Positions 18,190 to 48,500 are shown, counted from the first letter of the stretch. The stretch is DNA of 64,000 nt from Nitrosarchaeum sp. (GCA_965223865.1 OZ245020.1:1024001-1088000); one strand, 5' to 3'. Program-made: numbers and translations. The notes: generated by a model from the letters alone, not told the origin.

Positions 18190-18575
18190 TCTAGTTTATC
18201 ATTTCAGCAATATTGATTATCAATTCGGCATCTTTTCGGAGAGTCAAATTATCAATTCAGAAATAAATTCTAACAATTCAGTATCAATTCGGTGGAAGAT
18301 TTCGATTGATCCGGATTGATAACTATCTTTCCGGTAAACAAAAATGACTTTATCGGATTGATATTCAGATAGAATTCAAATGTACCGGAAAGATACCTGA
18401 AAAATCAAGCCTTTTCAAGCTTCTATCGAGAGCCACAAGGCTTGACCTGAAGCCTCTACCGATGGACATTTCTGGACATTGTCCAATTTTATCCGATAAA
18501 ATTCAAAACTGTCCAATTTTGTCTACAAAATTCACGTATGTCAAGAATTATCTGAGAATATCCATTCTGTCCAAA
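18190..18575 (+). repeat. Repeat-rich non-coding region, copy 1 (inverted homolog of 47990-48500)
   Basis: Blocks of ATCAATTCGG/CCGGATTGAT, AAGCCT and GGACATT/TGTCCAA units; long near-identity to the reverse complement of copy 2. Confidence 0.9.
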
Positions 18576-18617
18576 GAATAGCAATAGTTATCAACAATCA
18601 TTTTGGGCAGGATCGCA

Positions 18618-20708
18618 TTGAGGATACTCCTATTTGCACTGATGACAATTTTCATTTTTGGAGTTACTACTATGGCCTATGCTTCTGAACATTCAAACAC
18701 AAGCGGATACTCGGTCTCACTTGACAGGAATGTATATCCTGTGCCATTTGGAGGAATCCGAGACTTTGAAGACATAACATCTTCACATCCAGATGGCAGA
18801 TCATTGTTTCCTGTGCATCATACTGCGATAGCAGCCGAGAAAATGCAAGAAAAGCACACACTAGGACATGGTGACCTTACATTGCATATCAGAATACACG
18901 ATTCTGACTTTGACATATCATCACAAACAACAGACAAGATCTCCCAAGATATTCCTGGCAAGAGTGTTGGTCCGTTGAAGATATCAGTGTCCAGGGATTC
19001 GCAGACAATGGTGCTTGCATATGCTGGTGGCAGCACCCCGAACACCAGCGGAGTAATTGATGTCGGAGATGACAGTCCAGACAACACAAGGCAACTGGGA
19101 TCAATCTTTGAGGTTGCTCCCGAATCAGGAATATTTGAGCTGGACTTTGAAGTAAGATACACAGACGGCCCCTCCAATCCCAGATGTCCTGCAACTGTGG
19201 TATTTACTGCATTAGACTATGATGCGGCACCTGGCAGCGAAGAGTCAAGGTTTGATGTCCTGTCCTCTCCAAAGGAGAATTACTGCATTATGAAAGGAGA
19301 CATGTTAACTGTGGAATACACTAAACTAGATTCTTCTGGAAACATCATAGATGTGCTGACTGATTCTGCAACATTTGACATGAGAGACGCGTCGCTGAAA
19401 TCAGACAGGTCAATGTACATAATAGGTTCGGACATGATACTGACACTTACTGAGCCAGACCTTGATCTGGACAATGACGTTGCTGAGAGATATGACTTGG
19501 ATTTGATAGAGTGGGACTCGGATGCGGCAACGCTGACTTTGGGCGACCTTGGCGGAGAGGAGTCATCGTTTGATCCGGAACCTGCCACGTTTAGAGAAAC
19601 AGGGGACAGCACCGGCATCTTTCAGGTGGTAGTTGAGATTCCAGAAAAACTTCATGATGACTATCTGGAAAGAGGGGAGGAAATTTTGTTGGAGTACACT
19701 GACTGGAGCCCTTCTGGTGCTCAGTATGTTGGACAGGAAGATGAGGATGTAAACTGGACTCTTCACACATCAAACTTTGGTGCGACAGTTGAGCTTGACA
19801 AAAAGGCATACACCTGGACTGACAAGGTCTACATCACCATAGTTGCAAGAGACCACAACTTTGACAGTGATCTGATTGACGAGATTGGCAACTCTGATCA
19901 ATATCCTGTGACAGTATCCACTCAAGGTTTCACACTTGACAGATACAAGCTGGTCGAGACTGGTGTTGACACGGGAATTTTTACGGGAGAGGTGGCCCTG
20001 ACTGGATTTTTGCATGATGCTGATGGAAACAAGATTACAGGCAATGCAGACGGCTCTGACACCAGTCCCAAAACCTCCGGTAATGGAGCAACTGATGGAT
20101 TAATAGAGGCAACCAACAACGACAGCGTTTTCATATCCTTTACCTTTTCTGAAGATGAGACAGTAGTGGGGTCTGCCCTTATCCGATGGAATGAGGGAAA
20201 GGTAAGATGGCTTGAAGACAGTTATCCTACAAGCGGAACAGGAGTGGTCAGGGTGACTGATCCTGACATGAATCTGAATCCTGACAGAATCGACAACTTT
20301 GACATAGACGTGTGGTCTGATTCTGACCCTGGAGGAATTGACCTTACTGTAACTGAGACCGATGATTCAACTGGAATCTTTGAGGGGACTGTATTTTTTA
20401 CCACCACAGACGAGTCCTCAGGTCACAGGCTTCGAGTCATAGAAGGCGACACCCTGACTGCAGAGTATGAGGACAACACACTGCCTGAGCCATATACTCC
20501 TGCAGACGAGCAAGACATCACTGCAAAATCAATGATAATGGAGATGCCTTTATCTCCACTAAAACAGCAGCTGTCAGGAGTGCTTCCAGATGATGTTGCA
20601 TGCAAGAAAGGCCTGGAGAAAGTTTTCAGGTATGATGGCTCTGCAGCTTGTGTGAGTCCATTGACTGCAGAAAAACTGGATCATAGAGGCTGGATCACAC
20701 ACAAATGA
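18618..20708 (+). CDS. Shortened S-layer-protein-like protein with C-terminal PLKQ-Cys module
   Basis: SLDRNVYPVPFG, DLDLIEWDSDAA, RETGDSTGIFQ, TSNFGATVELD resemble the Nitrosopumilus S-layer protein as recalled; start TTG 18618 or 18603. Confidence 0.75.
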   Translation: MRILLFALMTIFIFGVTTMAYASEHSNTSGYSVSLDRNVYPVPFGGIRDFEDITSSHPDGRSLFPVHHTAIAAEKMQEKHTLGHGDLTLHIRIHDSDFDISSQTTDKISQDIPGKSVGPLKISVSRDSQTMVLAYAGGSTPNTSGVIDVGDDSPDNTRQLGSIFEVAPESGIFELDFEVRYTDGPSNPRCPATVVFTALDYDAAPGSEESRFDVLSSPKENYCIMKGDMLTVEYTKLDSSGNIIDVLTDSATFDMRDASLKSDRSMYIIGSDMILTLTEPDLDLDNDVAERYDLDLIEWDSDAATLTLGDLGGEESSFDPEPATFRETGDSTGIFQVVVEIPEKLHDDYLERGEEILLEYTDWSPSGAQYVGQEDEDVNWTLHTSNFGATVELDKKAYTWTDKVYITIVARDHNFDSDLIDEIGNSDQYPVTVSTQGFTLDRYKLVETGVDTGIFTGEVALTGFLHDADGNKITGNADGSDTSPKTSGNGATDGLIEATNNDSVFISFTFSEDETVVGSALIRWNEGKVRWLEDSYPTSGTGVVRVTDPDMNLNPDRIDNFDIDVWSDSDPGGIDLTVTETDDSTGIFEGTVFFTTTDESSGHRLRVIEGDTLTAEYEDNTLPEPYTPADEQDITAKSMIMEMPLSPLKQQLSGVLPDDVACKKGLEKVFRYDGSAACVSPLTAEKLDHRGWITHK

Positions 20709-22156
20709 ATTCCAAGATTTTGATTAGTGTTGGCGCTATTGCAGGAATTTCTATCGCAGCAGTTATGGCAATTACATTTGTTGCAACTCTTGGAGATGAT
20801 TCAGATGTATCACTGTCACCTGAAGAGATAAACAAGCTAGAACAGAGTGAAAACATTCCAAGGCAGTTCATAGAAATCACTAATGACAATCCCGAATTCT
20901 TTGAGAAATGGTGTCGTGACCAAAATGGTAACTGGGAGATTAAACAATCACAGATTGGAGGATTCTGCTATTTTGACTCTAGAACTGAAAAGATCAAGGC
21001 AGAACTTGAATGGGACAGATTGCAGCATCCAGTCATTATTGGAGATGACGCGCAGAAGATATGCCATGTTTTGGATTTGAAGTGTAATCAGGATGCAGAG
21101 TTTGAAGGATGGTTTGATGATGAAACAGGATATGTGAAACTTGATTATTCCTTGCATGACAAAGAATATTCATTTAGAATACAGGGAGACAGTATAGAAT
21201 ACTCAAGGCCTGACGTGTCAAGTTTTTGGTATTCATATGACGAGGCCTTTGATCAGCGACTTAATTTTGAACTGTCTGATAATTTCTATTTTGCAGGTAA
21301 TGAGATTCAAATATCTGGAAACGTCTTTGAGCATCCGGTAAATGATGTTGGTGATATGCCTGTAATACTTCAGGTATATTTTGGTAATGATGTGGTAGAG
21401 ATTGCCCAGATTCCTGTCTCTTCTAACGATCGATTTTCCCATCAGATAAAGACAGAAGGCCCGCAATGGCAACAGAGTGGTCGTTATACTGCTGTGGTCT
21501 CATTTGATTCTGGAAAGATGGAAAAAGACTTTGGGTTTTCCACATACTATGTTGGCAAGCCAACAAAATATTTCACAGACCTTGACTCTGGTGATTATGA
21601 GGAGTTGTGCGGTTATCCTGTAACCCATAAGATGCAGCAAGAGTTTTTGGAATCATGGAAGGCAAGACACGATGACAAGGATCCATTCCTTACAATCAGA
21701 CAGGGCACTTTCTCCCATGTTGAACGCTCTCAGTATCTGACTGCCATGCCAATTCTTCACTATTGGTATGACCTGAAAAATGGACAGCAGATCTATTTTG
21801 GCATGGAAGCATGCAGTCTTGACAGAATGTTGTTCAGGGCAGAGCCTGGTCCAAACTGGGAACCACCAAAAGAGTTTGAGATTGATGGCATTACATATGT
21901 GGAGTTGGAGGCTCCTGGAAGGCCATTGATCTACAAGGATACTTTGCTTCCAGTTCTGGATACAGATAACTGCAAACGAGTTGCAGACGAATACACAAAA
22001 CAACAAAGTCAAAAGATATACCTTCGCGAAAACACTTTTTCTGAAAGGGATTGGGAAAATCAAGTTTTCCCTCTGATGGACTATTGTACTGATATTGGGG
22101 AGTACGAGTCAAATACCCGTGATGGAAACATATCGTGGAATTTTATTCTGAAATGA
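20705..22156 (+). CDS. Membrane-anchored protein (shares domains with 46724-47932)
   Basis: N-terminal TM; GPQWQQSGRY, DYEELCGYPVT. Confidence 0.85.
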   Translation: MNSKILISVGAIAGISIAAVMAITFVATLGDDSDVSLSPEEINKLEQSENIPRQFIEITNDNPEFFEKWCRDQNGNWEIKQSQIGGFCYFDSRTEKIKAELEWDRLQHPVIIGDDAQKICHVLDLKCNQDAEFEGWFDDETGYVKLDYSLHDKEYSFRIQGDSIEYSRPDVSSFWYSYDEAFDQRLNFELSDNFYFAGNEIQISGNVFEHPVNDVGDMPVILQVYFGNDVVEIAQIPVSSNDRFSHQIKTEGPQWQQSGRYTAVVSFDSGKMEKDFGFSTYYVGKPTKYFTDLDSGDYEELCGYPVTHKMQQEFLESWKARHDDKDPFLTIRQGTFSHVERSQYLTAMPILHYWYDLKNGQQIYFGMEACSLDRMLFRAEPGPNWEPPKEFEIDGITYVELEAPGRPLIYKDTLLPVLDTDNCKRVADEYTKQQSQKIYLRENTFSERDWENQVFPLMDYCTDIGEYESNTRDGNISWNFILK

Positions 22157-22174
22157 AATCAAGTTGCAAAACAT

Positions 22175-22191
22175 CAGAAGAACTTATGAAC
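22175..22191 (+). promoter_or_regulatory. AGAAGAACTTATGAA motif
   Basis: CAGAAGAACTTATGAAC, 34 nt before ATG 22218. Confidence 0.6.
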
Positions 22192-22217
22192 ATCACACAT
22201 GACCCATAATTGATGCA

Positions 22218-22685
22218 ATGAGCATAGAAAAACTTGGAAAGATTGGAATCAGCGTCGGCATAGCAGTTGGAGTGTTGGTGATATTCATGATTGGCGCGGC
22301 AATTCCTGACACGATTGAACGCTACCATCCTCAGCCACACTTGGTAACTCAGTTTGATCAAACCACAAATGAATATGATATAGATGCTGAATTTTTGATG
22401 AGCAAATTTAACCAGACAGAGGCATATTCAGTTTTTGTCCATCGATATCCTGATCATGTGTCTAACTTGGATGTGCATGAACATGGAGGATATCTCAGAC
22501 TGATTGCAGTAAATACGGATAGAAACAATGTCTTAGAGCTAAGACTGAATATGAATGCAGGAGACAACTGGAGACTAGAACAAGATGCAGAATGCCAAAT
22601 AGGTGCCAGCACAGACAGGGGAGAGATACGTGCAAGAAATTCTGCAGTTGTGGAGTTTATCAAAAAGACAGATTGTATTGAGTGA
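22218..22685 (+). CDS. Membrane-anchored hypothetical protein
   Basis: N-terminal TM; 155 aa. Confidence 0.8.
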   Translation: MSIEKLGKIGISVGIAVGVLVIFMIGAAIPDTIERYHPQPHLVTQFDQTTNEYDIDAEFLMSKFNQTEAYSVFVHRYPDHVSNLDVHEHGGYLRLIAVNTDRNNVLELRLNMNAGDNWRLEQDAECQIGASTDRGEIRARNSAVVEFIKKTDCIE

Positions 22686-22721
22686 TGATAGCAACAGGTG
22701 TAAATGCTGAAAAACAATAAA

Positions 22722-23246
22722 ATGAAAACCAAATTTTTGAAAATTCAGTCAAGTGAGAAAAAGACCGTCTGTTTTATCATAGGTCTCTTTGTCCTCAATG
22801 CCTTTGGACTAATTCCAGTTGGAGTCATTGGCGCATATACTGCAGAGCCCATGAAAATAACTTCAAGTGAAACACTAGAGGATGGAACCATCAAAGAAAC
22901 AACAAATCTAAAGTATTACACTGAAGGATTATCTGAGAACATCCAATCCAATGTCTATGAATTTTTTAGATATTCGCTCCCGCTTGCCATGTCAGGATAT
23001 TTTCTAGTCACACCTCCTGACTTTACACATGATTACATTGGAGTTGTAGTGTGGATATTGGCATTTGCATCAATTCCACTTGCAATAAGATACACTGCAA
23101 AATTTCCAAGGTGGCACAGAATAGTCTACGTTTATCTCATTGCAGTACAGATATCGGGAATGTGGGCACTGCACCATATCAATTTTGAATGCATTTCACT
23201 TATCGACTATCCAATTAGACCAGGTCCCCCTTGTAAGGTAATATAG
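22722..23246 (+). CDS. Multi-pass membrane protein
   Basis: Start moved to MKTKFL; several hydrophobic segments. Confidence 0.75.
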   Translation: MKTKFLKIQSSEKKTVCFIIGLFVLNAFGLIPVGVIGAYTAEPMKITSSETLEDGTIKETTNLKYYTEGLSENIQSNVYEFFRYSLPLAMSGYFLVTPPDFTHDYIGVVVWILAFASIPLAIRYTAKFPRWHRIVYVYLIAVQISGMWALHHINFECISLIDYPIRPGPPCKVI

Positions 23247-23249
23247 AAA

Positions 23250-23669
23250 ATGAATACTAGAAACAAAATAATATTGATTGCAGTAATTGCCATTATTGCA
23301 ACATTTGTGATAAACTCAGCTATCCCTGGAATATTATTTAGAATGCAAGACAATCTTGGGTTGATTCTATACACTTGCACGCTTGGAATAGAGCGTACTG
23401 GTCCATTAATGCTAATTTCTTATAACAATGGAACACATACCATTGATGAAAATTCCTGTGCTTGGATAAAAAATCCTGGTTACAAACCTGCTTCAATGGA
23501 ACATCAAGAAATTAATGAAATGTCTTGTCAAGAACTTTTAGAAAGACATGCTGCAGGTGACCCTTATCAAAATAAAGAAAACAAGATATTTGCAGAATCA
23601 AAGATCTCAAACTGTAATTTTGTAGATGGCTGGTCTGAAGCACAGAAAAAGGTTGATGATTGGAAATAA
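23250..23669 (+). CDS. Membrane-anchored hypothetical protein
   Basis: MNTRNKII TM; starts in junction motif. Confidence 0.8.
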   Translation: MNTRNKIILIAVIAIIATFVINSAIPGILFRMQDNLGLILYTCTLGIERTGPLMLISYNNGTHTIDENSCAWIKNPGYKPASMEHQEINEMSCQELLERHAAGDPYQNKENKIFAESKISNCNFVDGWSEAQKKVDDWK

Positions 23670-23672
23670 GAA

Positions 23673-24175
23673 ATGACGACCAGAGAAATGCTAACCCTGT
23701 GTTTTGCCTTGATGATCATAGTTGGCATCAACCTTAATTTTGTTTTTTACCAAAACATTGTCCCTCCACTGTATATGTCAATGGACCATCTAGATGGGGG
23801 TCATTGGCTCATCTGATCCTGAATTGATTCGGACTCATCTTGCAGGATTAAAACAAGAGTTAAAGAGTATAATGCAGAGTCTGCCTGAAGGCAAGAATCC
23901 GGTCTGGTTTTATCCAACAGAGTCGACCAATTTTCTTAGAATTGAAAGTGACGTAAACACCATGATCACAAGCGTTGAAAAGATTTCTGCATTTCCAAAG
24001 GATACTCTTGCATATCATACTGGAATTATGGATATCAGCAGCAGGGCCTCATTAATCAAAGAAAACCTGTCAGATGCCAAGAGGTTTTCTGTATGCAAGT
24101 GCAACAAATGTAGTTTTTACCCTGATATGGCCGGCCGGTGCTATGGAATTTGCAAAGATATGGATTAGAGAATGA
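23673..24175 (+). pseudogene. Frameshifted paralog of 37813-38322
   Basis: MTTREML.. frame breaks at GGGGG 23796-23800; SSDPE..NPVWFYPT matches the paralog; a second shift near 24078 restores a hydrophobic C-terminus ending ATGA at 24172-24175. Confidence 0.7.
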
Positions 24176-24340
24176 AAACAGGTAAAAAAATGTTAATTGA
24201 ATTTATTGGCAAACACAATAAACTGCTCTTGTGAGAAAAAGCAGTGCATGATAGGACTTGCAAGTATCACAATAGGTGTTGGCGGGTTTATCTTGGCATC
24301 TTTGCTCTAAACACTTCCTTTCTTCTGACATTATAATTAA

Positions 24341-24358
24341 TTAGAAGAACTTATGAAT
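24341..24358 (+). promoter_or_regulatory. AGAAGAACTTATGAA motif
   Basis: TTAGAAGAACTTATGAAT, 29 nt before ATG 24380. Confidence 0.65.
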
Positions 24359-24379
24359 CTCATAGTTAAGACTAGTCAG

Positions 24380-24697
24380 ATGACAAAGATTGATTGTGCA
24401 CAAAACACTGAGCTTGCAGAAGAGATTGCAGAATTTCTACAGGAAAAGAATTTTTCAATAACATGCGAAAATGATCTGCTGATTACAAATGCAAGACTTT
24501 CAAAATCATTGCTTGAGTTATTTCTTGAAAAAACTGACAGGACCAGACACAAAATCACGCTTGTCGAACCAGATACTTTCCTGATTGCAATTCCTGTAAA
24601 GATGGAGGAAATCGGATTAGAGTCTTGTGAATTTTGCGGGTATACGAGCCACCATGATCTAGTTGAAGTTCATAGAAGGACACACCAAGGCTTGTAG
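24380..24697 (+). CDS. Small protein with C-terminal C2H2-type zinc finger
   Basis: CEFCGY...HRRTH; start moved to MTKIDC. Confidence 0.75.
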   Translation: MTKIDCAQNTELAEEIAEFLQEKNFSITCENDLLITNARLSKSLLELFLEKTDRTRHKITLVEPDTFLIAIPVKMEEIGLESCEFCGYTSHHDLVEVHRRTHQGL

Positions 24698-24700
24698 AAA

Positions 24701-25642
24701 ATGAAGACTAGGTTCTTGATGATTGTTCTTGTATTTGCAGGTATTTTTGGAACCGTTTATGCTGTTCCAGAGCCTGATCCTGAACACAGCTTTAGATATT
24801 CTGAAATTGTTATTGAGGGCAGGATTTTGTCAGTCAGCATTATTTCTGAGCCCATAATTTACAGAACTGAAGACACTTACTATGAGCAATCAGGAATTGC
24901 AGTTTATGATGTGCAAGTTGTAAAGTCCCTAAAGAACCCTGGTAATGTCAAAACGATTACTGTTGCAGGATATTTCTTAAGAGAACCTCATCCTATGGCC
25001 TATGAGACTTATCCATATGAAGTTGGACAAAAGGTACTGTTGTATTTGCAAGAAAATACTCATGGAGATGGAAATACAGATTTGATTATTCGCTCCAGCA
25101 CTTCAAAGATAGTTGCAGAACCTGATTCTGATTTGGAATCATTGCCTCCTTGTAAGAGTGGACCTTCCCCAGGAAGAAATTTTGTTTTCTTTGATTGTAA
25201 TTGGGTTGAGGTTCCGGATCATTGGAAGTTTGAAAATGGAAAGTGGCAAGAAGATCCATCTGTACTAAAACTTGGACCCGAACCTGATCCCGTATGTCCA
25301 GAAGTTGCTGTTTGTACCTGTCCAGGAAAATACAACTACTACAATTCCACTGACAATCGATGCTACTCTTCACCGTACATTCCGACATCTTATCAGAATG
25401 CATGTAAGCAGTATGCGCAACTTGACTTTGCAGGATGGGCCTTTAATGAAAACACGTGTGACTGGGTTTCTGCCTCTAACCCATACACTGATGATGAAAG
25501 ATTACGTCTGGCGTCTGAGAAGGTAGAACCAGGAGGTCTTGGCATCGATCCTGTCTTTGATGCAAGTACTATTATCGTTGGTGTGTTGATTGGAGCAAGT
25601 GTTGTAGTTGGCATAACATACTACTGGAGAAAAAGAAGATGA
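24701..25642 (+). CDS. Secreted Cys/Pro-rich protein with C-terminal TM anchor
   Basis: MKTRFL signal; N-domain resembles 2538-4346; ends in TM + WRKRR. Confidence 0.85.
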   Translation: MKTRFLMIVLVFAGIFGTVYAVPEPDPEHSFRYSEIVIEGRILSVSIISEPIIYRTEDTYYEQSGIAVYDVQVVKSLKNPGNVKTITVAGYFLREPHPMAYETYPYEVGQKVLLYLQENTHGDGNTDLIIRSSTSKIVAEPDSDLESLPPCKSGPSPGRNFVFFDCNWVEVPDHWKFENGKWQEDPSVLKLGPEPDPVCPEVAVCTCPGKYNYYNSTDNRCYSSPYIPTSYQNACKQYAQLDFAGWAFNENTCDWVSASNPYTDDERLRLASEKVEPGGLGIDPVFDASTIIVGVLIGASVVVGITYYWRKRR

Positions 25643-26898
25643 AAACTGGAACTTTGATAATTGTTGGTGTAATTGCAATATTTGCAGTGTTTTTTGTACC
25701 TGTAAATGGTTTTTCTGAAGATAATTTTGATATTGGGAGATTTAGCTATTTTCATTACGGGGAAAAATTTTACCAATACAAGTACTATCCATTTGGCACG
25801 TTAGCAAGTGAGTCTTCTAGCAGATGCTATTTTACATCCGATTTTGTTCTTGATAAAAATTCTTTTTCAGAGCCAGGACATGTCATGTACAAATTTCCTA
25901 ATGACATGGTCTGGCCTGGCGGATATGCAAATAGCACATTTTTTGTCATGAGTTCACCCTCATTTAACTTTCCTGAAGATAACAACTTTGAGAGGATAAT
26001 TCCAACCAAAACTGAAGAAGGCAGTATAGTTTTAGAGTTCAATCTTGTGCCCGGACTCAACACATTTCTTGCAAACTCTACTGCTTTTTGGGACTCTCAA
26101 AAATCACAGATAATTGATTGCCCAAACCCATTTGATTATGAAAGACAAGATTATGGATATTATGACTTTGTGTATCCTCTTAAGGTTCAGCAGGACCGTG
26201 CAATGATTTTTGATTTGGACAAAGGTGATTTTTTGTGCAAACCAGAATTTGTTTTAATCAAAAAATATGATGGCTCTCCCGCATGTGTAAGGGAACAAAC
26301 TGCTCCAAAACTAACTGATAAAGAAGAAAGATCAGGTTGGAATGTAAGTGAACAGTTGTGGGAGTCGCTATCAAAGAATATGAATGAATATTATTCTGAT
26401 GATAACTGTCCAAGGCATTGTCTTATCTTTGATGAAAAATATGTTGTAAATGGGATAGAACAAACTTTAGGAAAAACAATTGGACTGCCAAAACTTTTGC
26501 CGGACGGTTATGACCATTTTCAATTTCATCATAGAGACACGTATTCTGTAGTTCAAATTTCTCCCAATTCTATTTCTTTGGATACATCTTGGAATGATTT
26601 TTACTGGGAAGATAATGGAATATTTCTATTATTTTCTGAAACCCCTGTAACTGTTGATGGAAGGACCCAAACTGAATACTGGGCAAAAAACAACGATGCA
26701 CAAAAACTAGATTTGATTACATCTGATGAACATGTGTATATCAAAGAAAGAGGAATTTTTTATGATGATAAACTTGACATTCTTTATCCAACATTTACAG
26801 AAGCCAAATTTAATTATGGAGACCTAACAATTACAGTAACAGGTTATGTTTCAAGTGAAGAAATGTTTAGAATAGTGAATTCATTTTTTGAAAAATAA
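25639..26898 (+). CDS. Secreted mosaic protein with Cys module
   Basis: MKTGTL; KKYDGSPACV; N-domain shared with 28992, C-domain with 7987. Confidence 0.85.
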   Translation: MKTGTLIIVGVIAIFAVFFVPVNGFSEDNFDIGRFSYFHYGEKFYQYKYYPFGTLASESSSRCYFTSDFVLDKNSFSEPGHVMYKFPNDMVWPGGYANSTFFVMSSPSFNFPEDNNFERIIPTKTEEGSIVLEFNLVPGLNTFLANSTAFWDSQKSQIIDCPNPFDYERQDYGYYDFVYPLKVQQDRAMIFDLDKGDFLCKPEFVLIKKYDGSPACVREQTAPKLTDKEERSGWNVSEQLWESLSKNMNEYYSDDNCPRHCLIFDEKYVVNGIEQTLGKTIGLPKLLPDGYDHFQFHHRDTYSVVQISPNSISLDTSWNDFYWEDNGIFLLFSETPVTVDGRTQTEYWAKNNDAQKLDLITSDEHVYIKERGIFYDDKLDILYPTFTEAKFNYGDLTITVTGYVSSEEMFRIVNSFFEK

Positions 26899-38958: not shown

Positions 38959-38962
38959 CACA

Positions 38963-40116: not shown

Positions 40117-40141
40117 TTTCACAGGAGGGTATGACTTGAAA

Positions 40142-40519: not shown

Positions 40520-40532
40520 CACATGAGAGAAA

Positions 40533-40772: not shown

Positions 40773-40817
40773 AAAATAGTGATAATTCAGAACAAATGTC
40801 AAAAGAAAAAATAGAAA

Positions 40818-41909
40818 ATGAATCCCGAGATCCTAATAAAAAAACATATTGAAAAATCCAAAATTCCAGGAATTTCGGTTGGAATAGTAAATGAGAGGGG
40901 CATCGAGACATTCACTTACGGTGAAACCAGAAAAGACTCTGGAGTCTTACCAACATCAGACACAATTTATGAAATTGGTTCGATGACAAAGACATTCACT
41001 GCCATTCTAACAGTCAAATTACAAGAGGAGGGGCTGTTATCATTAGATGATCCGATAACCAAGTTTTTACCAGAATTTACAGGAACTGATTTTGACAAAA
41101 ACAGAATAACTCTTTTTCATTTGATTACTCATACTTCTGGCATAGTTGAGGTCCCATTCAAAGCATATTTCAAATATCTGATAAAATTCTTGTTTCGCGC
41201 TACTGGTGGGAAGATCTTCCCACAAAGATACAGTCTTGACACATCTTCATTTCTTCAAGAGATATCCCAGCTAAAATTAAAAGGCAATCCTGGAACAAAA
41301 TTCCGTTATTCGAATTCCGGAGTGGGCCTTGTTGGAAAAATTCTTGAGCGCGTAACTGGTTCCACATATGAGGAATTAATCAAAAGCAGAATTTTGAGTG
41401 CATTGAGCATGCATGACACCACAATTACCCTTTCAGATAACCACAAAGAAAGACTGGCAATAGGCTATATGCATACTGGAAAAGAAGCAGACCCCATCAA
41501 CATTCCTGCAGTTGAAAGTGCGGGTAGTATTTACTCTACCGTATCTGATCTACTGAAATTTCTTAAAGTCAATATGGGTCTTGAGCAATCCTCTTTGTCT
41601 CCTGTTTTGGAATATTGCAAGTCTACAAGAATTGATCCTTCGCTATCCTTCTTCCAAAAATTTACCGCTAAGTTGCTAATGGGGATTCAATCTATTGAAA
41701 TTGGATTGGGATGGGTTGCAGCAGATCTGAAAAATATCAATATACTTCAGCATTCAGGTGGAACTGAGGGATTTTCAACTACCATGATGATTAATCCAAA
41801 TAATAAAACTGGTGTTGTAGCATTATCCAATGCTGCATTCAAAGATAACTCAAAGTTATGTCTTGAGTTGTTAAAAAAATTAGATGGTAATGAAAATGAA
41901 AAGGGATAA
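40818..41909 (+). CDS. Serine hydrolase, beta-lactamase class C/AmpC-like family
   Basis: GSMTK (SxxK), YSN, HSGG motifs. Confidence 0.9.
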   Translation: MNPEILIKKHIEKSKIPGISVGIVNERGIETFTYGETRKDSGVLPTSDTIYEIGSMTKTFTAILTVKLQEEGLLSLDDPITKFLPEFTGTDFDKNRITLFHLITHTSGIVEVPFKAYFKYLIKFLFRATGGKIFPQRYSLDTSSFLQEISQLKLKGNPGTKFRYSNSGVGLVGKILERVTGSTYEELIKSRILSALSMHDTTITLSDNHKERLAIGYMHTGKEADPINIPAVESAGSIYSTVSDLLKFLKVNMGLEQSSLSPVLEYCKSTRIDPSLSFFQKFTAKLLMGIQSIEIGLGWVAADLKNINILQHSGGTEGFSTTMMINPNNKTGVVALSNAAFKDNSKLCLELLKKLDGNENEKG

Positions 41910-41958
41910 CACATTCAAAGAAAAGTTTTATCATTAACCAATGGAGTAGGAACTTAAA

Positions 41959-42084
41959 ATGAGTAGAAAATCAGGATCCCCTAGACAGCAGTCAATATTC
42001 AAATGTACACATTGTGATTTTATGTCCAAAAAGAATTCAAATTTTATTTTACATGTTAAGGAAAAACACGGGATTGAACTGTAG
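41959..42084 (+). CDS. Tiny C2H2-type zinc finger protein (41 aa)
   Basis: FKCTHCDF...HVKEKHG; translated by hand. Confidence 0.5.
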   Translation: MSRKSGSPRQQSIFKCTHCDFMSKKNSNFILHVKEKHGIEL

Positions 42085-42155
42085 GGAGAAACAAGTCAAT
42101 ATGACTCTTCAAATCCGCCTCTTGAAATTTATACTGTAATTTTACGGATACTAGA

Positions 42156-42914
42156 GTGCTCAAAAGCAACAATGACAGTTTTTTGAAAAAAAATTATCCA
42201 CTGGTGTTAATTATAGTTGGATTTTTTCTTGTGTTTTTCCCTTTTGGCTTGGTAGGAGCAAGTGAGTTGGGAGATGGGGCAGTTTTCTTGCATGGTTTAG
42301 CTGCCGTATTGGTGGTAGGTTTTGTGTCATACTACAAAAAAAGAAAGGAATACTCGACTAAAACAAGAAAATATGTAAAAATAACGGCACTTGCAATTCC
42401 TCTATTCTTTGCTGCAGCAGTTTTTGTTGGAATTGCAATGGGTATCAGCAGCGTACTCTTCACGCTGTCACTTGAGCCAACCAAGCACATGGACACAGAT
42501 TTAGTTGAGAAAAGAGTCCTTGATTGGGTAAACATACACCGTGCCCAAAATAATGTGAGTGGAGTCAATATGGATACAACACTGAACCGTCTTGCAGAAA
42601 TCCGCAGTTTGGAAATATTCCATGCACCTCATGAAGACAGAGAGGATGTCTCCAATGTAGACATAAATGAGATTGCAAAAAGGGAAGGAATTGAGTGCAC
42701 AATCAACGGTGAATCTGTCAGCATCTATGATTATGTCTTACTCTTTCCGCCTAAATCCTATTCCGATATGGAAAAGGCAATAGACCATGCCATGAAGCAT
42801 ATGACTGTCGAGGACGATTACGGGGATATTGTTTTTTCACCAAATGCTACAAGAACCGGCATTAACTCGTTTGTGGATGGAAATTACCTGTTTGTGGTTC
42901 AAAATTTTTGTTAG
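42156..42914 (+). CDS. Membrane protein with C-terminal CAP/SCP-like domain
   Basis: 3 TMs; WVNIHRAQ..LNRLAEIRS..VVQNFC. Confidence 0.75.
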   Translation: MLKSNNDSFLKKNYPLVLIIVGFFLVFFPFGLVGASELGDGAVFLHGLAAVLVVGFVSYYKKRKEYSTKTRKYVKITALAIPLFFAAAVFVGIAMGISSVLFTLSLEPTKHMDTDLVEKRVLDWVNIHRAQNNVSGVNMDTTLNRLAEIRSLEIFHAPHEDREDVSNVDINEIAKREGIECTINGESVSIYDYVLLFPPKSYSDMEKAIDHAMKHMTVEDDYGDIVFSPNATRTGINSFVDGNYLFVVQNFC

Positions 42915-43000
42915 ATGACATCAAGTCATTTCTCAATCTTTTTGGTTGATGTTTTTTTCAAGATTATGAGTAATGTCGTTACTTCATCATGCACGTCATT

Positions 43001-43100
43001 ATTTCCACGTGGGTCCAGTAATTAACCATCTAACTATATCCTCAGCACAACATGCATGGGGATATAGTTAGCGGTGTTTTTGTTGTACCCACGTGGAAAT
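43001..43100. repeat. 100-bp nested palindromic element (MITE- or att-like)
   Basis: Perfect 14-bp outer IR ATTTCCACGTGGGT and perfect 12-bp inner IR CTAACTATATCC. Confidence 0.85.
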
Positions 43101-43202
43101 GGTTTGTAAGTTCAGAAATCTAACAGATAAGAAAAATTAGAGACGTATAAAAAACAACCAACTTGTCATCTTAACCAGTTCTTCTTTTAGACAAGTTTGT
43201 GC

Positions 43203-44528
43203 TTATGGTTCAGTGAAAAATATTCCACTGCCGCATTCTCCCTTGTGCTTCATGACAATATGCTCTGCATCTAGCATGCACATGTTGCCATAAGTCTTGT
43301 TGTTGACTCCACATACAGGATCATACTCCAAAATGCATGCGACAATGCGGGGCATCATGCTCCATCCCCTGTTTTCCAACTTTGATGCAGATTCTTGTTT
43401 TACACATGCAGGAGAACCGGTATGTTTGAAGACCAACTGCAATGGCTCTGCACATATGACATCACTTGCTGCAATTCCCGCATTTCCTTGTTGTGATGGT
43501 TTAAGATATGGTTTTGTTTTGCCATCCATTGTGCAAACTTTTCCCGGATATGCCCCAGGACCACACCTGTCGTCTAGAACGCAGATCTCATCTAGTGGAA
43601 CAAAACCTGGTGCGCAAAGACCCCCATATGGAACATGTCTTGTTTTGTCATATGGCACAAATTCTGGTTTTGTATCTGAAGATGGATTCTTGTATGATGG
43701 TTGCGATGTTTTTTCCTGCTTTGTTGTAGCATTGATTTGTTTGTCTTGCTCAGTTGTTGCTTTCAGGTAAAACTGCCTATCATTTGTTGAACCTGCAAAC
43801 TCTGCAACAACATCATAAAATCCACGAGAAGTTCCAAATGGGGAAGGCACAGATTGTGTAGTGTAATCCCATTTTGTATCATCCGATGTGTCTAGATAAT
43901 ACGAAAATTCGCCATATTCATCTAAACTAACTTCAGCTTCATGAAGTAATATTTTGCTGTTTTTTCCGTAGATTTTGAGCGTAACTGGTTCATCAGTACT
44001 CACTTCACTGTCATCAACAGAATGTCCATATCCGTAAATCTTGAGCATGTCGCCCTGCACATAATTTGCCTTGTCTGCATTCACACCTACGTGATTACCA
44101 AGTGAATTTTTTGCATGTTTTATTATTGCCTTTTTTTCTTGGTCTTTTTGATAGTGTGTTATGTCACTTTCAGTTAGTACATAATTGACACCAAAAATCT
44201 CCACAAATTCTTTACCTGACCCGCTCACGATTATCTTGTAAATCCCATCTTCCCAAGATGATGGTATTATGCGAGTCTCCATTCCAATAGAATCATAGGG
44301 GCCATAACTGTGACTAGAACTCATAATTTCACCTGACGGATGCACAATGATAATTGTAAGAACATGACCACCCTTATCCTCAATAAAGCCAGACATTTTC
44401 ACTACATCTCCGTCTGAATAGTTTTGCCGGTCAAGTGTAATGTAGTCTTCTTGAGCAAAAGCGTTGGCAGTCACCACCACTGCAGTCAAGACAAGTATCG
44501 AGGATAACAGTAGTTTTATCATGATCAA
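43203..44528 (-). CDS. Secreted protein with Ig-like repeats, Cys module and C-terminal Kazal-type domain
   Basis: ACILEYDPVCGVNNKTYGNMC..KHKGEC; GSPACVKQESASKLENRGW. Confidence 0.85.
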   Translation of the reverse strand: MIMIKLLLSSILVLTAVVVTANAFAQEDYITLDRQNYSDGDVVKMSGFIEDKGGHVLTIIIVHPSGEIMSSSHSYGPYDSIGMETRIIPSSWEDGIYKIIVSGSGKEFVEIFGVNYVLTESDITHYQKDQEKKAIIKHAKNSLGNHVGVNADKANYVQGDMLKIYGYGHSVDDSEVSTDEPVTLKIYGKNSKILLHEAEVSLDEYGEFSYYLDTSDDTKWDYTTQSVPSPFGTSRGFYDVVAEFAGSTNDRQFYLKATTEQDKQINATTKQEKTSQPSYKNPSSDTKPEFVPYDKTRHVPYGGLCAPGFVPLDEICVLDDRCGPGAYPGKVCTMDGKTKPYLKPSQQGNAGIAASDVICAEPLQLVFKHTGSPACVKQESASKLENRGWSMMPRIVACILEYDPVCGVNNKTYGNMCMLDAEHIVMKHKGECGSGIFFTEP

Positions 44529-44679
44529 CGTGTAAGATTCTGATACAAAAGTGATGTTATAGAAAGGTTTGAAATTAGACCCACGTGGAAAAAAATACTA
44601 TGCAAAAAATAGTATACATATTATGAAATTACAAGATTATAGGGATCCTCTTAAATTGAACAATTTCATAGGATACTAA

Positions 44680-46401
44680 TTGCTTGTTGAATATGACAAA
44701 CCCTCAAAAAAATTTACTGATAGTATAAGACAAGGAATTACTGAAGAGATTTCAAAAGCAACCAATAGTGTCCAGAAGGGGAGATTATTCTTGAAATGGG
44801 TACTTACAAAAGCATTTCAGGCTACAATCGATGATGCAGATAATGGAATTTTAGATGGGCCAAATGATCATGGGATTGATGCAATTCTAGAAGTACAAGG
44901 AAGTGAAATGAGTTTTTTTAGAATTTTTCAAGCGAAGTATGGCAAGTCTCATAGTTCCGATGCAATCCAAGCATTTAAAGCAAAAATGGATGAATTTGTT
45001 AGACAAAATCCTAATGATTTGCCAGAAGGAAGAATTCGTGATGCCTTAATCAACATCAAAAGAAAAGGATGGGATGTAGAAGCAATCTATATTACAAATG
45101 AAAAAACGGATTTTCAAAGTAAGGATAATTTTCAGGTTTATGGTTTTGATCGAATTGTTAAAAAAATGTGGGAAGATATATCAGAACCAGCAGAAGGAAA
45201 AACAGAAAAAATTACTTTAGAAGAATATATGAAATATGATCATACAATCATAGGAGTAATTTCACTTCGTGAGTTAGGTGAGCTTGTTCTAAGAAGTAAG
45301 AAATACATTTTTGAATCAAATATTAGAAAATTTCTGCCAGTAAAAACCAAAGTTAACAAACAATTAAGAGAATCATTGAAGACAGAACCTGAAGAGGTGT
45401 TTTATTACAATAATGGAATTACAATAGTTGTAAAAAAAGTAAACGAATTGGGTGATGCTAAACTTCAACTTATATCTCCTCAAATTGTTAATGGGGCACA
45501 GACATCAAGCACGATAGCAGACATTGTTAGAGGGGATAGAAACATTAAAGGAAATATTCAGATTACAATCATTACAGAAGATATCAGAACAACACGAAAT
45601 AATATCACAAAATACAGAAATTCACAGAACGCAGTTAAGGGAAGAGACTTAATATCATTAGAAAGATTCCATGATTCGATTTATGGTCAACTAAAAGCAA
45701 AATTAGGATATTACTATGAACTACAGGCGGGCTCGTGGGAAGCAATGACACGTCAAGAAAGAGAATCTTACAAAGGAGATACAATTCTCAATAATTACCT
45801 TCCTGAAAACCATGAAATGAAAATACCAGCAAATGATTCTATTCAGGCTATGGCAGCTGCAATAACCCAAGATCCCGCAAAACCCTATGGGAGTATAAGC
45901 AAATATTTACCTGGTGGAACAGAATATGAAAAAATCTTCAAAGAAGAGGGATTAGAAAAAGAAGATGATTATAGATTATTGTTGTATCCTTATTTAGTAA
46001 AATCATATTGTGAAAAGGCATTCAATTATGGCAGTAAAAAAGCCAATATGGATGAAAAAAAATATGCAAGACTTCTCTTTGTTACTGCATACTTTATGGC
46101 ATTACAAAATCATATTCTAGATAAGAAAAGGAACTATAAAGAAAACCCAAAGTTGTTAGATCTGTATTTTGAAAATTTTGAGACAAATAAAAAATTATTT
46201 GAATTGACAGATAGTGTATTAGACCAATTCTTTGATCAAACTGAATTCATTAGGCAGGATGAAGATGGAAAAGATAAAATGACGTTACACAACTTCTTTG
46301 CAAGACATGTTTGGTCATCTGAAGCAAAAACAATCCTTCGAAATATTATGAAACGAAAAAAAGAAAAATTCAAAGAGATTAGAGTTGAATTTGAAAAATA
46401 A
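44680..46401 (+). CDS. AIPR family protein (abortive infection / RM-associated)
   Basis: DGPNDHGIDA, FQAKY, NIRKFL, YYNNGITI, QIVNGAQT, NSQNAV. Confidence 0.9.
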   Translation: MLVEYDKPSKKFTDSIRQGITEEISKATNSVQKGRLFLKWVLTKAFQATIDDADNGILDGPNDHGIDAILEVQGSEMSFFRIFQAKYGKSHSSDAIQAFKAKMDEFVRQNPNDLPEGRIRDALINIKRKGWDVEAIYITNEKTDFQSKDNFQVYGFDRIVKKMWEDISEPAEGKTEKITLEEYMKYDHTIIGVISLRELGELVLRSKKYIFESNIRKFLPVKTKVNKQLRESLKTEPEEVFYYNNGITIVVKKVNELGDAKLQLISPQIVNGAQTSSTIADIVRGDRNIKGNIQITIITEDIRTTRNNITKYRNSQNAVKGRDLISLERFHDSIYGQLKAKLGYYYELQAGSWEAMTRQERESYKGDTILNNYLPENHEMKIPANDSIQAMAAAITQDPAKPYGSISKYLPGGTEYEKIFKEEGLEKEDDYRLLLYPYLVKSYCEKAFNYGSKKANMDEKKYARLLFVTAYFMALQNHILDKKRNYKENPKLLDLYFENFETNKKLFELTDSVLDQFFDQTEFIRQDEDGKDKMTLHNFFARHVWSSEAKTILRNIMKRKKEKFKEIRVEFEK

Positions 46402-46424
46402 TCAGGGTTAAAATCTTGAGAATA

Positions 46425-46653
46425 ATTTTACTGATTCAGTAAATATTCCTGAAGTGGTGAAAATTCAGAATTTCCTAATACTCGTTTCATATGTAATCCT
46501 ACATTTTTTGATTTGACAGAATCACATAATTCAGACGCAATTAAATCAAGATCATATAATCTGTGAATTCTACGTTTCTCGTTAATAATATAATCAAAAA
46601 AATCCTGTTGTTGTGATTGCAGATAACAAAAAAATGATTGAAAAATATTTCAT
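46425..46653 (-). pseudogene. Frameshifted remnant downstream of promoter-like motif
   Basis: MKYFSIIFLLSAITTTGFF* stops at a T-run; end coordinate approximate. Confidence 0.4.
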
Positions 46654-46677
46654 GATTTGATAAACCTAGAATTTCAA

Positions 46678-46695
46678 GTTCATAAGTACTTCTGA
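46678..46695 (-). promoter_or_regulatory. AGAAGAACTTATGAA motif variant
   Basis: TCAGAAGTACTTATGAAC, 32 nt before ATG 46653. Confidence 0.6.
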
Positions 46696-46723
46696 TGTTT
46701 TATGGCATCCATTGTAGTGTATT

Positions 46724-47932
46724 CTAATTTCTTCTCTCAACCATTGACATGTTAGAGCCATCAACATCGCAGGCCCCAATCTTAAATCCAATTTGCTTGT
46801 CTCTGTTGTCAAAGTCAAACCAGTACACTAGGTGGGGGTCATTTGCTGGATAATTAGGAGCATGCTCAATATGTGTAAAGGTCACACTGTACAAATCAAA
46901 GTATGGAATGCCCTCTCTCGTAAACCTGTGGCTGTTGTCATGAATTGCCTGCATTCGCATCTCATCGGTCACAGGAAATCCACACAGGCTTTCATAATCG
47001 TTGGATTCTGGTTGCAGGTAATCTGAAAGTGGAAATTCATCAGGATTGACAGTAAAGCCAAATGTTATCTTCTCAATGGTCTTGCCTCCATAGGAGATGT
47101 CTACTGTATACAGGCCATTTTTCTGCCACTGGGGTCCTGCTGCATCAATCGGATATGAGAATTCACCTTCTCTTATATTTGCAAGCTGATCCACCTCTAC
47201 TAGGTCTCCATTAGGATTGATTACCTGGATAACTAATGGCATTATCTCATCATTGATGATGTTGCCTTTATCATCTTTGTAGTCTGTGAACCAGAAAAAT
47301 CCTTGAATGAGGATTTGGTCTCCAATCTTGTAATGGTCGCTTAAGCGCCAAAGAGACATGCCAGCAAGAACAGGCATCTCATCATGAGATGCCGTTTTCA
47401 TTATGGAGTTTGGATCGTGTCCTACCCATCCTCTCTCCATCAACTTGCTTGATGTCGCTTCAGAGACACATACTGCACTGCTATAGTCGGGCCTTACGAT
47501 TATCTTGTGGGCTGTATTGCATCCGCTCAGGGCTTTTCCAGAAAGATCATCAACTATGACAAATTTCTTGATTTGCGTGTCTTTGTGTGGTTGTCCGTTT
47601 ATCTCATACTCTGTATGGATAAGGAACTGGCCCGGATTTCTCATAAAGTATGCTTGGTCTGCAATGAATTTCGAGTTGCCGTCTACAAGGCCCGTGTGTA
47701 CCTTGTCTGAAAATTCATTTCCACTATCAATGTCCTCAAAGACAAACTTTATTGTTGCAGATGCCATCTTTTGTGATGGATTTTGGATGTAATCGTGAAG
47801 CGAGACTGCGTCATCTACTTGGTTATACGCAATGGCATGGTAATTTCCAGACGATTCTGCAAATGCGAAATTGTCAAGTACAAAGAATAAACTCGCAAAT
47901 ACCGTTAATCCGAAGAAAAGTTCAGTTTTCAT
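46724..47932 (-). CDS. Secreted mosaic protein (N-half like 30665, C-half like 20705)
   Basis: Start MKTELFF; AVCVSEATSSKLMERGW; GPQWQKNGLY; DYESLCGFPVT. Confidence 0.85.
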   Translation of the reverse strand: MKTELFFGLTVFASLFFVLDNFAFAESSGNYHAIAYNQVDDAVSLHDYIQNPSQKMASATIKFVFEDIDSGNEFSDKVHTGLVDGNSKFIADQAYFMRNPGQFLIHTEYEINGQPHKDTQIKKFVIVDDLSGKALSGCNTAHKIIVRPDYSSAVCVSEATSSKLMERGWVGHDPNSIMKTASHDEMPVLAGMSLWRLSDHYKIGDQILIQGFFWFTDYKDDKGNIINDEIMPLVIQVINPNGDLVEVDQLANIREGEFSYPIDAAGPQWQKNGLYTVDISYGGKTIEKITFGFTVNPDEFPLSDYLQPESNDYESLCGFPVTDEMRMQAIHDNSHRFTREGIPYFDLYSVTFTHIEHAPNYPANDPHLVYWFDFDNRDKQIGFKIGACDVDGSNMSMVERRN

Positions 47933-47989
47933 GAATATGACCAATTTTTGGTTATCGCTTTTAGCAATTACCATGAAATTACACACACA

Positions 47990-48500
47990 GTTTTGGACAA
48001 ATCTTGACATTTGTAGACATTTGTGGATATTTCTGGATAAAATTGGACAATTTTGGACTTTTTTGGATAATGTCCAGAAATGTCCACCGGTAGAGGCTTA
48101 CGATAAAGCCTAGAGGCTTTCGATAGAGGCTTGCAAAGGCTTGATTTTTCTGATATCTTTCCGGTACATTTGAATTCTATCTGAATATCAATCCGGTAGA
48201 ACACATTATCAATCCGGTAAAATCATTTTTGTTTACCGGAATGATAACTATCAATCCGAACTAATCAAAACATCCTGCCGGATTGATAGAAAAATACACT
48301 GGAATGATAGATGACAGCACCGGAAAAATAAACTCTGTTATCTGAAAGATTACCATTCCACCGAATTGATAGAATTTATCTCCGAATTGATAACTTGACT
48401 CTCCGAAAAAATACCGAAATGATAAATCTGTTTTACCGAAATGATAAACCCCACACCGAATTGTTAATTCGTTCCATCGAATTGATGCCGAAAAGATGCT
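47990..48500 (-). repeat. Repeat-rich non-coding region, copy 2
   Basis: Reverse complement shares e.g. CGGATTGATATTCAGATAGAATTCAAATGTACCGGAAAGATA with 18354-18395. Confidence 0.9.

Follow-up and report, generated by a model that had tools for sequence, protein, structure and literature searches.

A family of helically phased repeat hubs beside secreted-protein operons in Nitrosopumilaceae

Introduction

Ammonia-oxidising archaea are among the most abundant microbes of ocean and soil, and their gene regulation and the exchange of their surface proteins are barely understood. Here we describe a pair of repeat-built intergenic regions in Nitrosarchaeum sp. (GCA_965223865.1), a thaumarchaeal genome of 2.0 Mb and 34% GC that we refer to as G000. 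The analysis covered a stretch of 64,000 nucleotides (OZ245020.1:1024001-1088000), called the window, and positions are those of the window unless a contig is named. The two regions, hub A (18177-18575, plus strand) and hub B (47991-48487, minus strand), lie on the chromosome at C1:1042177 and C1:1071991.

Results

Two inverted hubs and the genes beside them

Both hubs are composed of short repeats in a fixed succession of blocks and stand next to genes for secreted proteins. Their features and those of the adjoining genes (ORF, open reading frame; TRF, Tandem Repeats Finder) are as follows.

14622-18086, minus strand: first gene of the leftward operon, encoding a 1154-aa BNR-like protein with an N-terminal hydrophobic segment
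18078..18103, minus strand: start motif (TT)AGAAGAACTTATGAAC, which holds the ATG (18086) of that gene
18177..18292, plus strand: forward array of hub A, six 11-bp units of the TATCAATTYRG type (starts 18177, 18197, 18218, 18250, 18271 and 18282; spacings 20, 21, 32, 21 and 11 bp)
18303..18395, no strand assigned: inverted units of hub A, with the 24-bp palindrome CCGGATTGATAACTATCTTTCCGG at 18311-18334, the AAACAAAAATGA spacer, reverse units at 18353-18363 and 18385-18395, and a 42-bp stretch shared with hub B at 18354-18395
18408..18452, plus strand: AAGCCT(CTA)/AGGCTT block of hub A, a variable middle module
18455..18575, plus strand: GGACATT/TGTCCAA array of hub A with a 10-bp period, which stops 29 bp short of the rightward start codon
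18603..20708, plus strand: first gene of the rightward operon, encoding a 701-aa protein with a signal peptide and without a Pfam family
46724..47932, minus strand: secreted-protein gene headed by hub B, with a signal peptide; the ATG at 47932 (MKTELFF...) is likely the true start, as the start of the longest ORF, 48010, falls inside the array
47991..48085, minus strand: GGACATT/TGTCCAA array of hub B (TRF period 10, 8.5 copies)
48092..48142, minus strand: AAGCCTCTA block of hub B, three direct copies and one inverted
48154..48290, no strand assigned: inverted units of hub B and palindrome TTCGGATTGATAGTTATCATTCCGG (48236-48260), with one 21-bp unit more than hub A
48361..48487, minus strand: forward unit array of hub B, exact at 48361, 48382, 48414 and 48436 and degenerate up to 48487
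48261-48530, minus strand: 89-aa ORF contained in hub B, an antisense reading of the unit repeats
48531..48545, plus strand: degenerate start motif AGAACTACTTATGAA with 2 mismatches, pointing away from hub B

The original prediction, made from the window alone, that these are homologous copies in inverted orientation was borne out. In a BLAST search of the whole genome, hub A retrieved hub B (E 2.4e-55 and 5.3e-21) and nothing else below 1e-3, and its alignment with the reverse complement of hub B breaks into three collinear stretches, of 179 nt (80% identity), 82 nt (82%) and 66 nt (88%). The finer claims held as well: the exact 42-bp stretch is common to both, three repeat blocks follow one another in the same order in each, and the copies differ by gain or loss of repeat units, with whole blocks that differ in length (hub B is, for example, longer by 70 bp and by 21 bp). 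Within 3.5 kb on each side, hubs A and B and the hub at a further locus, L029, have no common sequence outside the hubs themselves; hub B, 82% identical to L029 over 234 bp, is nearer to it than to hub A.

The motifs are nearly confined to these two places. The unit TATC[AT][AT]T[TC]CGG has 17 copies in the genome, 14 of which lie inside the hubs, and the stricter form TATCA[AT]T[TC]CGG has 12, with 11 inside them. Clusters of at least three units, and likewise of at least five TGTCNAN words, occur genome-wide at the two hubs only, so that the clustering of both repeat kinds there is far from chance. TRF detected a period of 11 at 18250-18290, of 21 at 48361-48407, and of 10 at 47987-48071. 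As single strands, the hubs fold better than shuffled sequences (z -3.5 and -4.6). A search of the window against Rfam returned nothing above threshold save a tRNA-Val, and hub A, searched at E up to 1, gave two chance-level matches of 20.6 and 17.5 bits, where the gathering scores are 58 and 60.

A patchy, multi-copy family of hubs

With one genome taken per prokaryote species, a scan for pairs of units 9-12 bp apart yielded 77 stretches. We analysed 52 loci, namely the 53 stretches with a thaumarchaeal or archaeal label minus L050, which overlaps L049; many of them lie at contig ends. Loci were classed as hub type where four or more GGACATT-type words lie within 400 bp of a unit cluster on one flank. 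Beyond the window, 18 loci fall into this class, in four genomes labelled Nitrosopumilus or Nitrosopumilaceae: nine under the contig prefix JAJCXK01, seven in NZ_CBDCVU01 (G042), and one each in OX638319 (G041) and CAZDPM01. Together with the two window hubs they make up the set of 20 hubs used below. A copy of hub A is also present in G004, a genome of the same genus (Nitrosarchaeum sp.). The distribution is patchy: among 151 evenly sampled genomes of the family, the unit pair was found in three, all of the window's genus.

Members of the family share a block order. It begins with TATCAWTYCGG units at multiples of 10.5 bp, TATCTTTCCGG variants, a 24-bp palindrome of two half-sites, the AAACAAAAATGA spacer and reverse units, and continues through a variable middle block, a CCGGAAAGATAC box and a TGTCCAA array at 10 bp to, usually, a signal-peptide gene. 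The middle block consists of AAGCCT in A, B and L029 and of TTTCCGAAAC/GTCGAAAC repeats in most other hubs, and the seven hubs of G042 carry extra TTTCC-N4-GAAA repeats beyond the array. Copy number of the units also varies within a single hub, as one metagenome contig has hub A with one extra 21-bp unit behind 18353. With regard to arrangement, the G042 hubs form three back-to-back inverted pairs (L040/L031, L038/L086 and L023/L032) whose members are 10-23 kb apart, and the window pair stands face-to-face at a distance of 29.5 kb.

Hubs A and B belong to a multi-copy, patchily distributed family of intergenic regions of 0.4-0.7 kb in some Nitrosopumilaceae, which we read with moderate confidence as control regions. 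In the literature searched we found no published description of the hub repeats, and the available parts of PMC6563490 and PMC8464041 do not mention them; the family is apparently undescribed.

Units follow the helical repeat of DNA

Spacings between units were counted on the same strand and up to 90 bp, which gave 116 values over the 20 hubs. They group at 11-12 bp (16 spacings), 19-22 bp (56, of which 46 are exactly 21), 31-32 bp (14) and 41-42 bp (14), and the longer ones at 52 bp (3), 62-64 bp (9), 73-74 bp (3) and 84 bp (1). Words of the TGTCCA type are spaced by 10 bp (60 cases), 20 bp (11) or 30 bp (3), against 15 other spacings. The units therefore follow the helical repeat, at multiples of 10.5 bp, and the TGTCCAA array keeps a strict 10-bp period. 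Direct repeats of about 17-22 bp in helical phase, as expected of iterons, are accordingly present, given the 46 of 116 spacings at exactly 21 bp. The hub arrays cannot be coding repeats, given that 11, 32, 52 and 74 are not divisible by three.

Hubs lie next to the starts of secreted-protein operons

At 14 of the 20 hubs, the TGTCCAA array leads to an ORF of 100 aa or more that has a hydrophobic stretch among its first ~85 residues; its start falls between 60 bp ahead of the array end and 450 bp beyond it. Divergent ORFs that start no more than 450 bp from the first unit are present at 12 of the 20. A single protein cluster, to which the 701-aa protein of the window belongs, is found beside 11 of the 20 hubs; its proteins have no Pfam family, and look-alikes occur in Nitrososphaerota only. 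In G042, operons with signal peptides of the 'MKTR' type, like those of the window, are headed by two hubs, one of them on both sides, and the other five hub loci have no ORF of this type just after the array.

These results bear on several statements of the original prediction. It had linked the hubs to operons that begin at a recurrent junction motif, and this link extends to other genomes, both in the 14 of 20 hubs just mentioned and in the same start motif at several of them. Its assignment of the hub ends was also correct: in both hubs the TGTCCAA end leads into a signal-peptide gene, and the unit end leads to the motif AGAAGAACTTATGAA, which is exact and carries an ATG at hub A (18082, minus strand) and has 2 mismatches at hub B (48531, plus strand). 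The placement of each hub between divergent transcription units applies to hub A but not to hub B, whose TetR neighbour (48654-49283) runs in the same direction as the secreted-protein gene. Similarly, the claim that the non-coding DNA is better conserved than flanking genes that differ stands in so far as the hub alone is conserved within 3.5 kb, but two of the ORFs are related: 20705-22156 and 46724-48010 have a 161-aa stretch in common at 35% identity. A short Cys...RGW motif is also common to the flanking genes.

In several hubs the array is followed by a start motif of the form CAG[GA]AGAACTTATGAAC, which we read as a Shine-Dalgarno-like GGAG or GAAG, a 5-6 nt spacer, ATG and an Asn codon. 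For this reason, the junction motif is most simply taken as the translation-start region of a first gene. The genome has seven exact copies of AGAAGAACTTATGAA, five of which lie between 2.5 and 24.4 kb of the window (2500, 13130, 18082, 22176 and 24343), in an island described below. Its ATG opens a long ORF at 18082 and 24343 and only a 7-aa ORF at 2500 and 22176, and at 13130 it does not share the frame of the long ORF that comes next (start 13109); the copies at 2500, 13130 and 22176 might mark leader peptides or mis-set starts.

The unit is built into a small membrane-protein gene

The 11-mer of the hubs, read on the other strand, also encodes three to six heptads (x-x-x-[ATS]-G-[LMK]-I) at the 5' end of a small gene, of which we collected 17 distinct copies, 14 of them intact. 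The predicted protein has 114-153 aa, a basic stretch and a C-terminal transmembrane (TM) helix. Its structural model reaches a mean predicted local distance difference test (pLDDT) score of 56 and shows one TM helix, with residues 1-48 below 50, so that the repeat part is predicted to be disordered.

Codon choice in the 66 motifs of the 17 gene copies was compared with that of eight neighbouring polymerase genes. Glycine is encoded by GGA and isoleucine by ATA in 65 of 66 cases each (48% and 35% in the polymerase genes), threonine by ACC in 51 of 52 (20%), leucine by TTG in 24 of 24 (41%) and alanine by GCC in 11 of 11 (13%). The three codons between the heptad motifs vary freely. Because the synonymous positions of the motif are nearly invariant, the constraint acts on nucleic acid, which points to the unit as a DNA signal tolerated inside a reading frame. 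The small gene would thereby offer a clean case of a DNA signal overprinted on a protein-coding repeat.

Hubs accompany casposon-like modules and a mobile island

The small gene belongs to a module found elsewhere, which runs in the order 749-aa polymerase (with a YMDTDS motif), small protein and heptad membrane-protein gene. The available part of PMC6563490 gives the same gene order for the family-1 casposons of Thaumarchaeota, and one of the module copies has Cas1 directly upstream. The small protein beside the array has no Pfam or Protein Data Bank (PDB) match; in our reading it is a helix-turn-helix protein. A unit array lies 3' of the polymerase at all six polymerase loci of two complete genomes. 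In a second form of the module, polymerase, small protein and another TM protein are followed by a terminator-like hairpin, a short hub of forward units and GAAAC repeats, a start motif and a secreted-protein gene. Similarity between module copies stops at the hub end, and the genes downstream differ. Around the modules in G041 and G043, a search for terminal inverted repeats found none; the start motif may resemble the end of the casposon repeat of that kind (...TTCTA). The phage collection held no match to the polymerase protein or to hub B DNA. A scan of viral contigs for the unit pair gave 0 matches. One complete module, 80% identical to the Nitrosopumilus ones, lies on a 10.5-kb contig (L055, JAJDDX010000210.1) binned as Phycisphaerae; the contig comes from the same study series as JAJCXK01 (isolates OFTM243 and OFTM383) and is probably mis-binned.

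Small gene and hub are also found together outside the modules. At L095 and L061 the heptad gene diverges directly from a full hub. At the place of hub B, beside the TetR gene, L095 carries both gene and hub, G004 lacks the hub and has a copy of the gene interrupted by a premature TGA, and the window genome has the hub and only the degenerate start motif. A homologue of the polymerase was not found in the window genome (tblastn, E 1e-3).

Hub A lies mid-way in an island (2422-28732) that corresponds to G004:109392-132068 at 98.3-99.1% identity and stands there in another chromosomal context. As the conserved flanks of the two genomes are 79-93% identical, the 26-kb island, which consists mostly of secreted- and membrane-protein genes, looks like a recent transfer between species. 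Both the ends of the island and a 3.6-kb difference inside it coincide with stretches of similar sequence that encode signal peptides or TM segments. Segment 4344-8052 is missing at the matching site of G004 and is found about 27 kb further on there at 93.6% identity; its breakpoints lie in a 47-bp repeat (GAAAATGAAAACTAG...), the conserved stop/ATG/signal-peptide junction between cassettes. Metagenome contigs depart from hub A exactly at 18077/18081, within the start motif. No strand-changing joint over 16500-20500 was seen in the metagenome contigs, and weak skip joints (126 bp and 40 bp) with short sides and low depth were disregarded.

Candidate binding proteins and other features of the window

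The foremost candidate for a hub-binding protein is the small array-adjacent protein of the casposon-like modules, given the arrays at all six polymerase loci. Three further proteins were considered and set aside. A CDC48-N-like protein (13185-14534, minus strand) is encoded near hubs in three genomes, but the N-domain of VAT/p97 is a protein-recognition fold and not a DNA-binding one. This 449-aa protein is cytoplasmic and has a complete CDC48/VAT N-domain (Foldseek E 4e-10), a coiled linker and a beta-rich C-terminal domain but no ATPase; its family counts only 25 members, all apparently thaumarchaeal, encoded within secreted-protein operons. The TetR protein beside hub B is paired divergently with a monooxygenase gene, to which its operator would be expected to belong. 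The heptad-repeat membrane protein has a poor model with a disordered repeat region and one TM helix. A small protein without an N-terminal hydrophobic segment and with a C2H2-type zinc-finger end is encoded at 24353-24697 (plus strand), in first position behind a start motif; near the other hubs a single homologue was found (L106, in the G042 region between two hubs).

The window has several further features. The 13-mer TTTCCACGTGGGT has six exact copies in the genome, four of them in the window (43002, 43087, 44579 and 56350), and at up to 2 mismatches it matches the window six times against 1.0 expected. Its copies lie in longer inverted and direct repeats that bracket a Kazal-domain gene (43203-44528), and one is 275 bp from the tRNA-Val, which bears an intron; the 13-mer could be a binding site or an att-like repeat. 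A gene of the AIPR (abortive-infection-type) family (44680-46401, plus strand) adjoins the secreted-protein gene of hub B, in a strain-specific stretch (28.7-48.7 kb) without a counterpart in G004. Two paralogues of the serine beta-lactamase family (40818-41909 and 50635-51702) contain a 196-nt direct repeat at 70% identity, and the second of them belongs to a TetR/flavin adenine dinucleotide (FAD)-monooxygenase/hydrolase cluster that is 88% identical to that of G004. Outside the chromosome, contig C4 of the genome (11096 bp) consists of a ~2.58-kb unit repeated four times, and C2 (3969 bp) is a palindromic duplicate with a simple (TATA-like) repeat; neither resembles the archaeal chromosome, and both may be contaminants or assembly artefacts.

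Discussion

A proposed bidirectional promoter-operator platform

The interpretation that we favour, with about even confidence, is that an oligomerising DNA-binding protein would coat the hub and make it a bidirectional promoter-operator platform in control of secreted-protein operons that are exchanged between genomes. One protein would recognise the 11-bp half-site TATCAWTYCGG in direct arrays on one face of the helix, at half-site spacings of 11, 21, 32, 42 bp and so on, followed by the 24-bp palindrome, suited to a dimer, and by the reverse units. The same or a second protein would polymerise on the 10-bp-phased TGTCCAA array, which abuts or overlaps what would be the core promoter of the secreted-protein operon. 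Cooperative occupancy of the arrays could then switch the operon on the TGTCCAA side, and the second operon or small membrane-protein gene on the unit side might be switched as well, with unit number shifting by whole 21-bp steps. Such a platform would travel with its operons, as hub A lies in an exchanged island and units lie at the right-hand end of the casposon-like polymerase modules. Binding of protein, control of promoters, and a repressing or activating effect of the hubs are what we infer from this arrangement. The original prediction of a multi-protein binding platform receives indirect support from the phasing in 20 hubs, the dimer-type palindrome, the conservation of the hub alone and the DNA-level constraint on the unit; the specific functions that it had proposed did not fare as well and are taken up below.

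Several points weigh against the platform. The small casposon-linked protein, the candidate binder, is absent from the window genome (nothing by tblastn; best HMMER E 0.47), and the CDC48-N-like protein, besides its unsuitable fold, is absent from G043. No clear TATA element or B recognition element (BRE) was identified between arrays and genes in hubs A and B, and at six of the 20 hubs the array is not directly followed by an ORF of 100 aa or more. All 20 were found through the unit pattern, so that the associations describe a selected set, drawn from six genomes. The repeats within one gene are not independent of each other, so that recent duplication or gene conversion could explain part of the codon invariance. 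Finally, the hubs carry four to ten direct phased repeats followed by an inverted pair, and direct iterons with an inverted pair are the classic layout of an iteron origin.

That layout is the starting point for a different explanation, which we consider unlikely: the hub would belong to a mobile element, integrated or once extrachromosomal, and act as its iteron-type replication origin or centromere-like partition site, with monomers on the units, a dimer on the palindrome, and the 10-bp array as a region of unwinding or bending. Its patchy yet multi-copy occurrence (three of 151 genomes, with seven to nine hubs in two genomes), the physical link to polymerase modules, the position of hub A inside a recently transferred island and the folding of single strands would all suit a mobile replicon. 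However, the neighbours of the hubs are secreted-protein genes, and initiator, helicase, ParA/ParM-type and integrase families were not found among the 62 ORFs of the window, so neither the iteron origin nor the centromere-like site of the original prediction is supported. The only Cdc6_C match lies about 650 kb away (C1:383554-383814), the cumulative GC skew of C1 is noisy and lacks an extremum near 1.04-1.07 Mb, the AT content of the TGTCCAA array does not markedly exceed that of the genome, and seven to nine origins would be implausible in a 1.8-Mb chromosome. Elements with a protein-primed polymerase are, moreover, expected to start replication at their termini and not at internal iterons. 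The link to such elements can also be read in terms of expression. The hub would then be a portable expression site common to family-1 casposon-like elements and flexible islands, in which a coating factor, from the casposon or from the host, sets the expression of horizontally acquired cassettes; this is a doubtful extension of the platform, and the associated proposal that secreted- and surface-protein cassettes are joined at the junction of hub and start motif is equally so. If the extension were true, casposon relatives would supply a control module, and perhaps a landing pad, for swapping or switching the surface repertoire.

Quite unlikely, in our view, is a site of recombination or cassette acquisition made of the hub and AGAAGAACTTATGAAC, be it integron-like or a landing pad for a casposase, the inverted pair of which would allow the 29-kb segment to invert. 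The exact divergence of metagenome contigs inside the start motif speaks for it, although strain variation alone also yields such contig ends, and so does the end of module similarity at the hub, beyond which the genes differ. The inverted orientation of four of the five neighbouring hub pairs seen is no more than suggestive. In the available part of PMC8464041, the 13-bp target of a family-1 casposase begins with ATTGATAA, the core of the reverse unit, but requires a TTT leader and an A at position 11, both of which are missing from the context of the unit. G000 and G004 are collinear straight across hub A, and their breakpoints lie in similar 5' coding ends and a TM-coding stretch, which indicates homologous recombination; no recombinase was found near the hubs in the window, and known att sites have neither helical phasing nor a 10-bp array. 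The idea of a leader from which arrays grow meets the same difficulty, as no recombinase was found and the visible breakpoints avoid the hub. We regard it as very unlikely that the hub works as a non-coding RNA or mRNA leader whose repeated CCGGAUUGAUA motifs bind an RNA-binding protein, as a sponge or in translational control. Synonymous-site constraint within an mRNA equally fits a signal in RNA, and the motif contains GGA, but the 10.5-bp periodicity, the use of two unit orientations and the 2-nt centre of the palindrome match double-stranded DNA and not RNA, and hub A has no Rfam match above the gathering score. Highly improbable, lastly, is that the hubs are functionless, eroded remnants of the 5' end of the small membrane-protein gene, where the heptads are encoded, although the same 11-mer encodes the repeats of that gene, G004 and L095 have the gene at the place corresponding to hub B, and hub B retains an 89-aa antisense reading. 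Spacings of 11, 32, 52 and 74 bp break the frame, units in both orientations keep a fixed order with palindrome spacer, CCGGAAAGATAC box and TGTCCAA array in 20 loci, fixed synonymous positions within intact genes point to selection on DNA, and the repeat part of the protein is predicted to be disordered. Decayed coding sequence, which the original prediction had named as its own possible refutation, is largely rejected on these grounds.

The motif set, well defined and nearly unique to the hubs in a 2-Mb genome, offers a direct bait for a regulator. The hub is also a marker for flexible islands that move between species, and it unexpectedly places casposon relatives, from which CRISPR adaptation is proposed to descend, in physical connection with secreted-protein operons of the host.

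Comparison with known systems

Phased arrays before plasmid operons include parC of plasmid R1 with ParR and the heptad arrays bound by omega of pSM19035, in which units of 7-11 bp, direct and inverted, lie at a promoter and are bound cooperatively by a small dimer that represses and organises the DNA. The hubs resemble these systems in having many short units, direct and inverted and helically phased. They differ in that no partition ATPase or ribbon-helix-helix gene was found nearby (the arrays are present in the window, a ParA/ParM-type partition NTPase was not found there), in their two unit types and variable middle block, and in their place on an archaeal chromosome, where one to nine copies per genome head secreted-protein operons. 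Iteron plasmid origins combine direct iterons with inverted half-iterons that serve as the rep operator, and the hubs are similar in that four to ten direct repeats recur about every 21 bp ahead of an inverted pair made from the same half-site; multiple chromosomal copies, secreted-protein neighbours and the lack of an adjacent rep gene set the hubs apart, with the initiator (Rep) gene sought among the window ORFs and the flanks in other genomes clustered but only in part scanned against Pfam.

Archaeal oriC has origin-recognition boxes of the TTTCCA type beside orc1/cdc6. The hubs likewise have repeated boxes in opposite orientation around a central region, but they are not next to orc1/cdc6, their unit is unrelated to such boxes, and other genomes have many copies. 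They differ from an integron platform in that no integrase family was found in the window and the cassette junctions are stop-ATG overlaps with a conserved signal-peptide 5' end instead of hairpins, and from a CRISPR array in their 11-bp core, gaps of 0, 10 or 21 bp and units in both orientations, whereas a CRISPR array has identical repeats of at least about 23 bp on one strand and unique spacers of at least about 26 bp. With the family 1 casposons of Thaumarchaeota the relationship is physical: the 11-bp unit is built into the gene 3' of the polymerase and the putative helix-turn-helix gene, and short hubs follow, whereas hubs A and B lie in a genome in which no polymerase was found and a window without a Cas1 family among its ORFs. 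A phased operator array would carry its sites on one helical face beside or over the promoter of the genes it controls and be bound by a cognate protein; the hubs show helical phasing and a position next to gene starts, and the small array-adjacent protein of the modules is a candidate binder.

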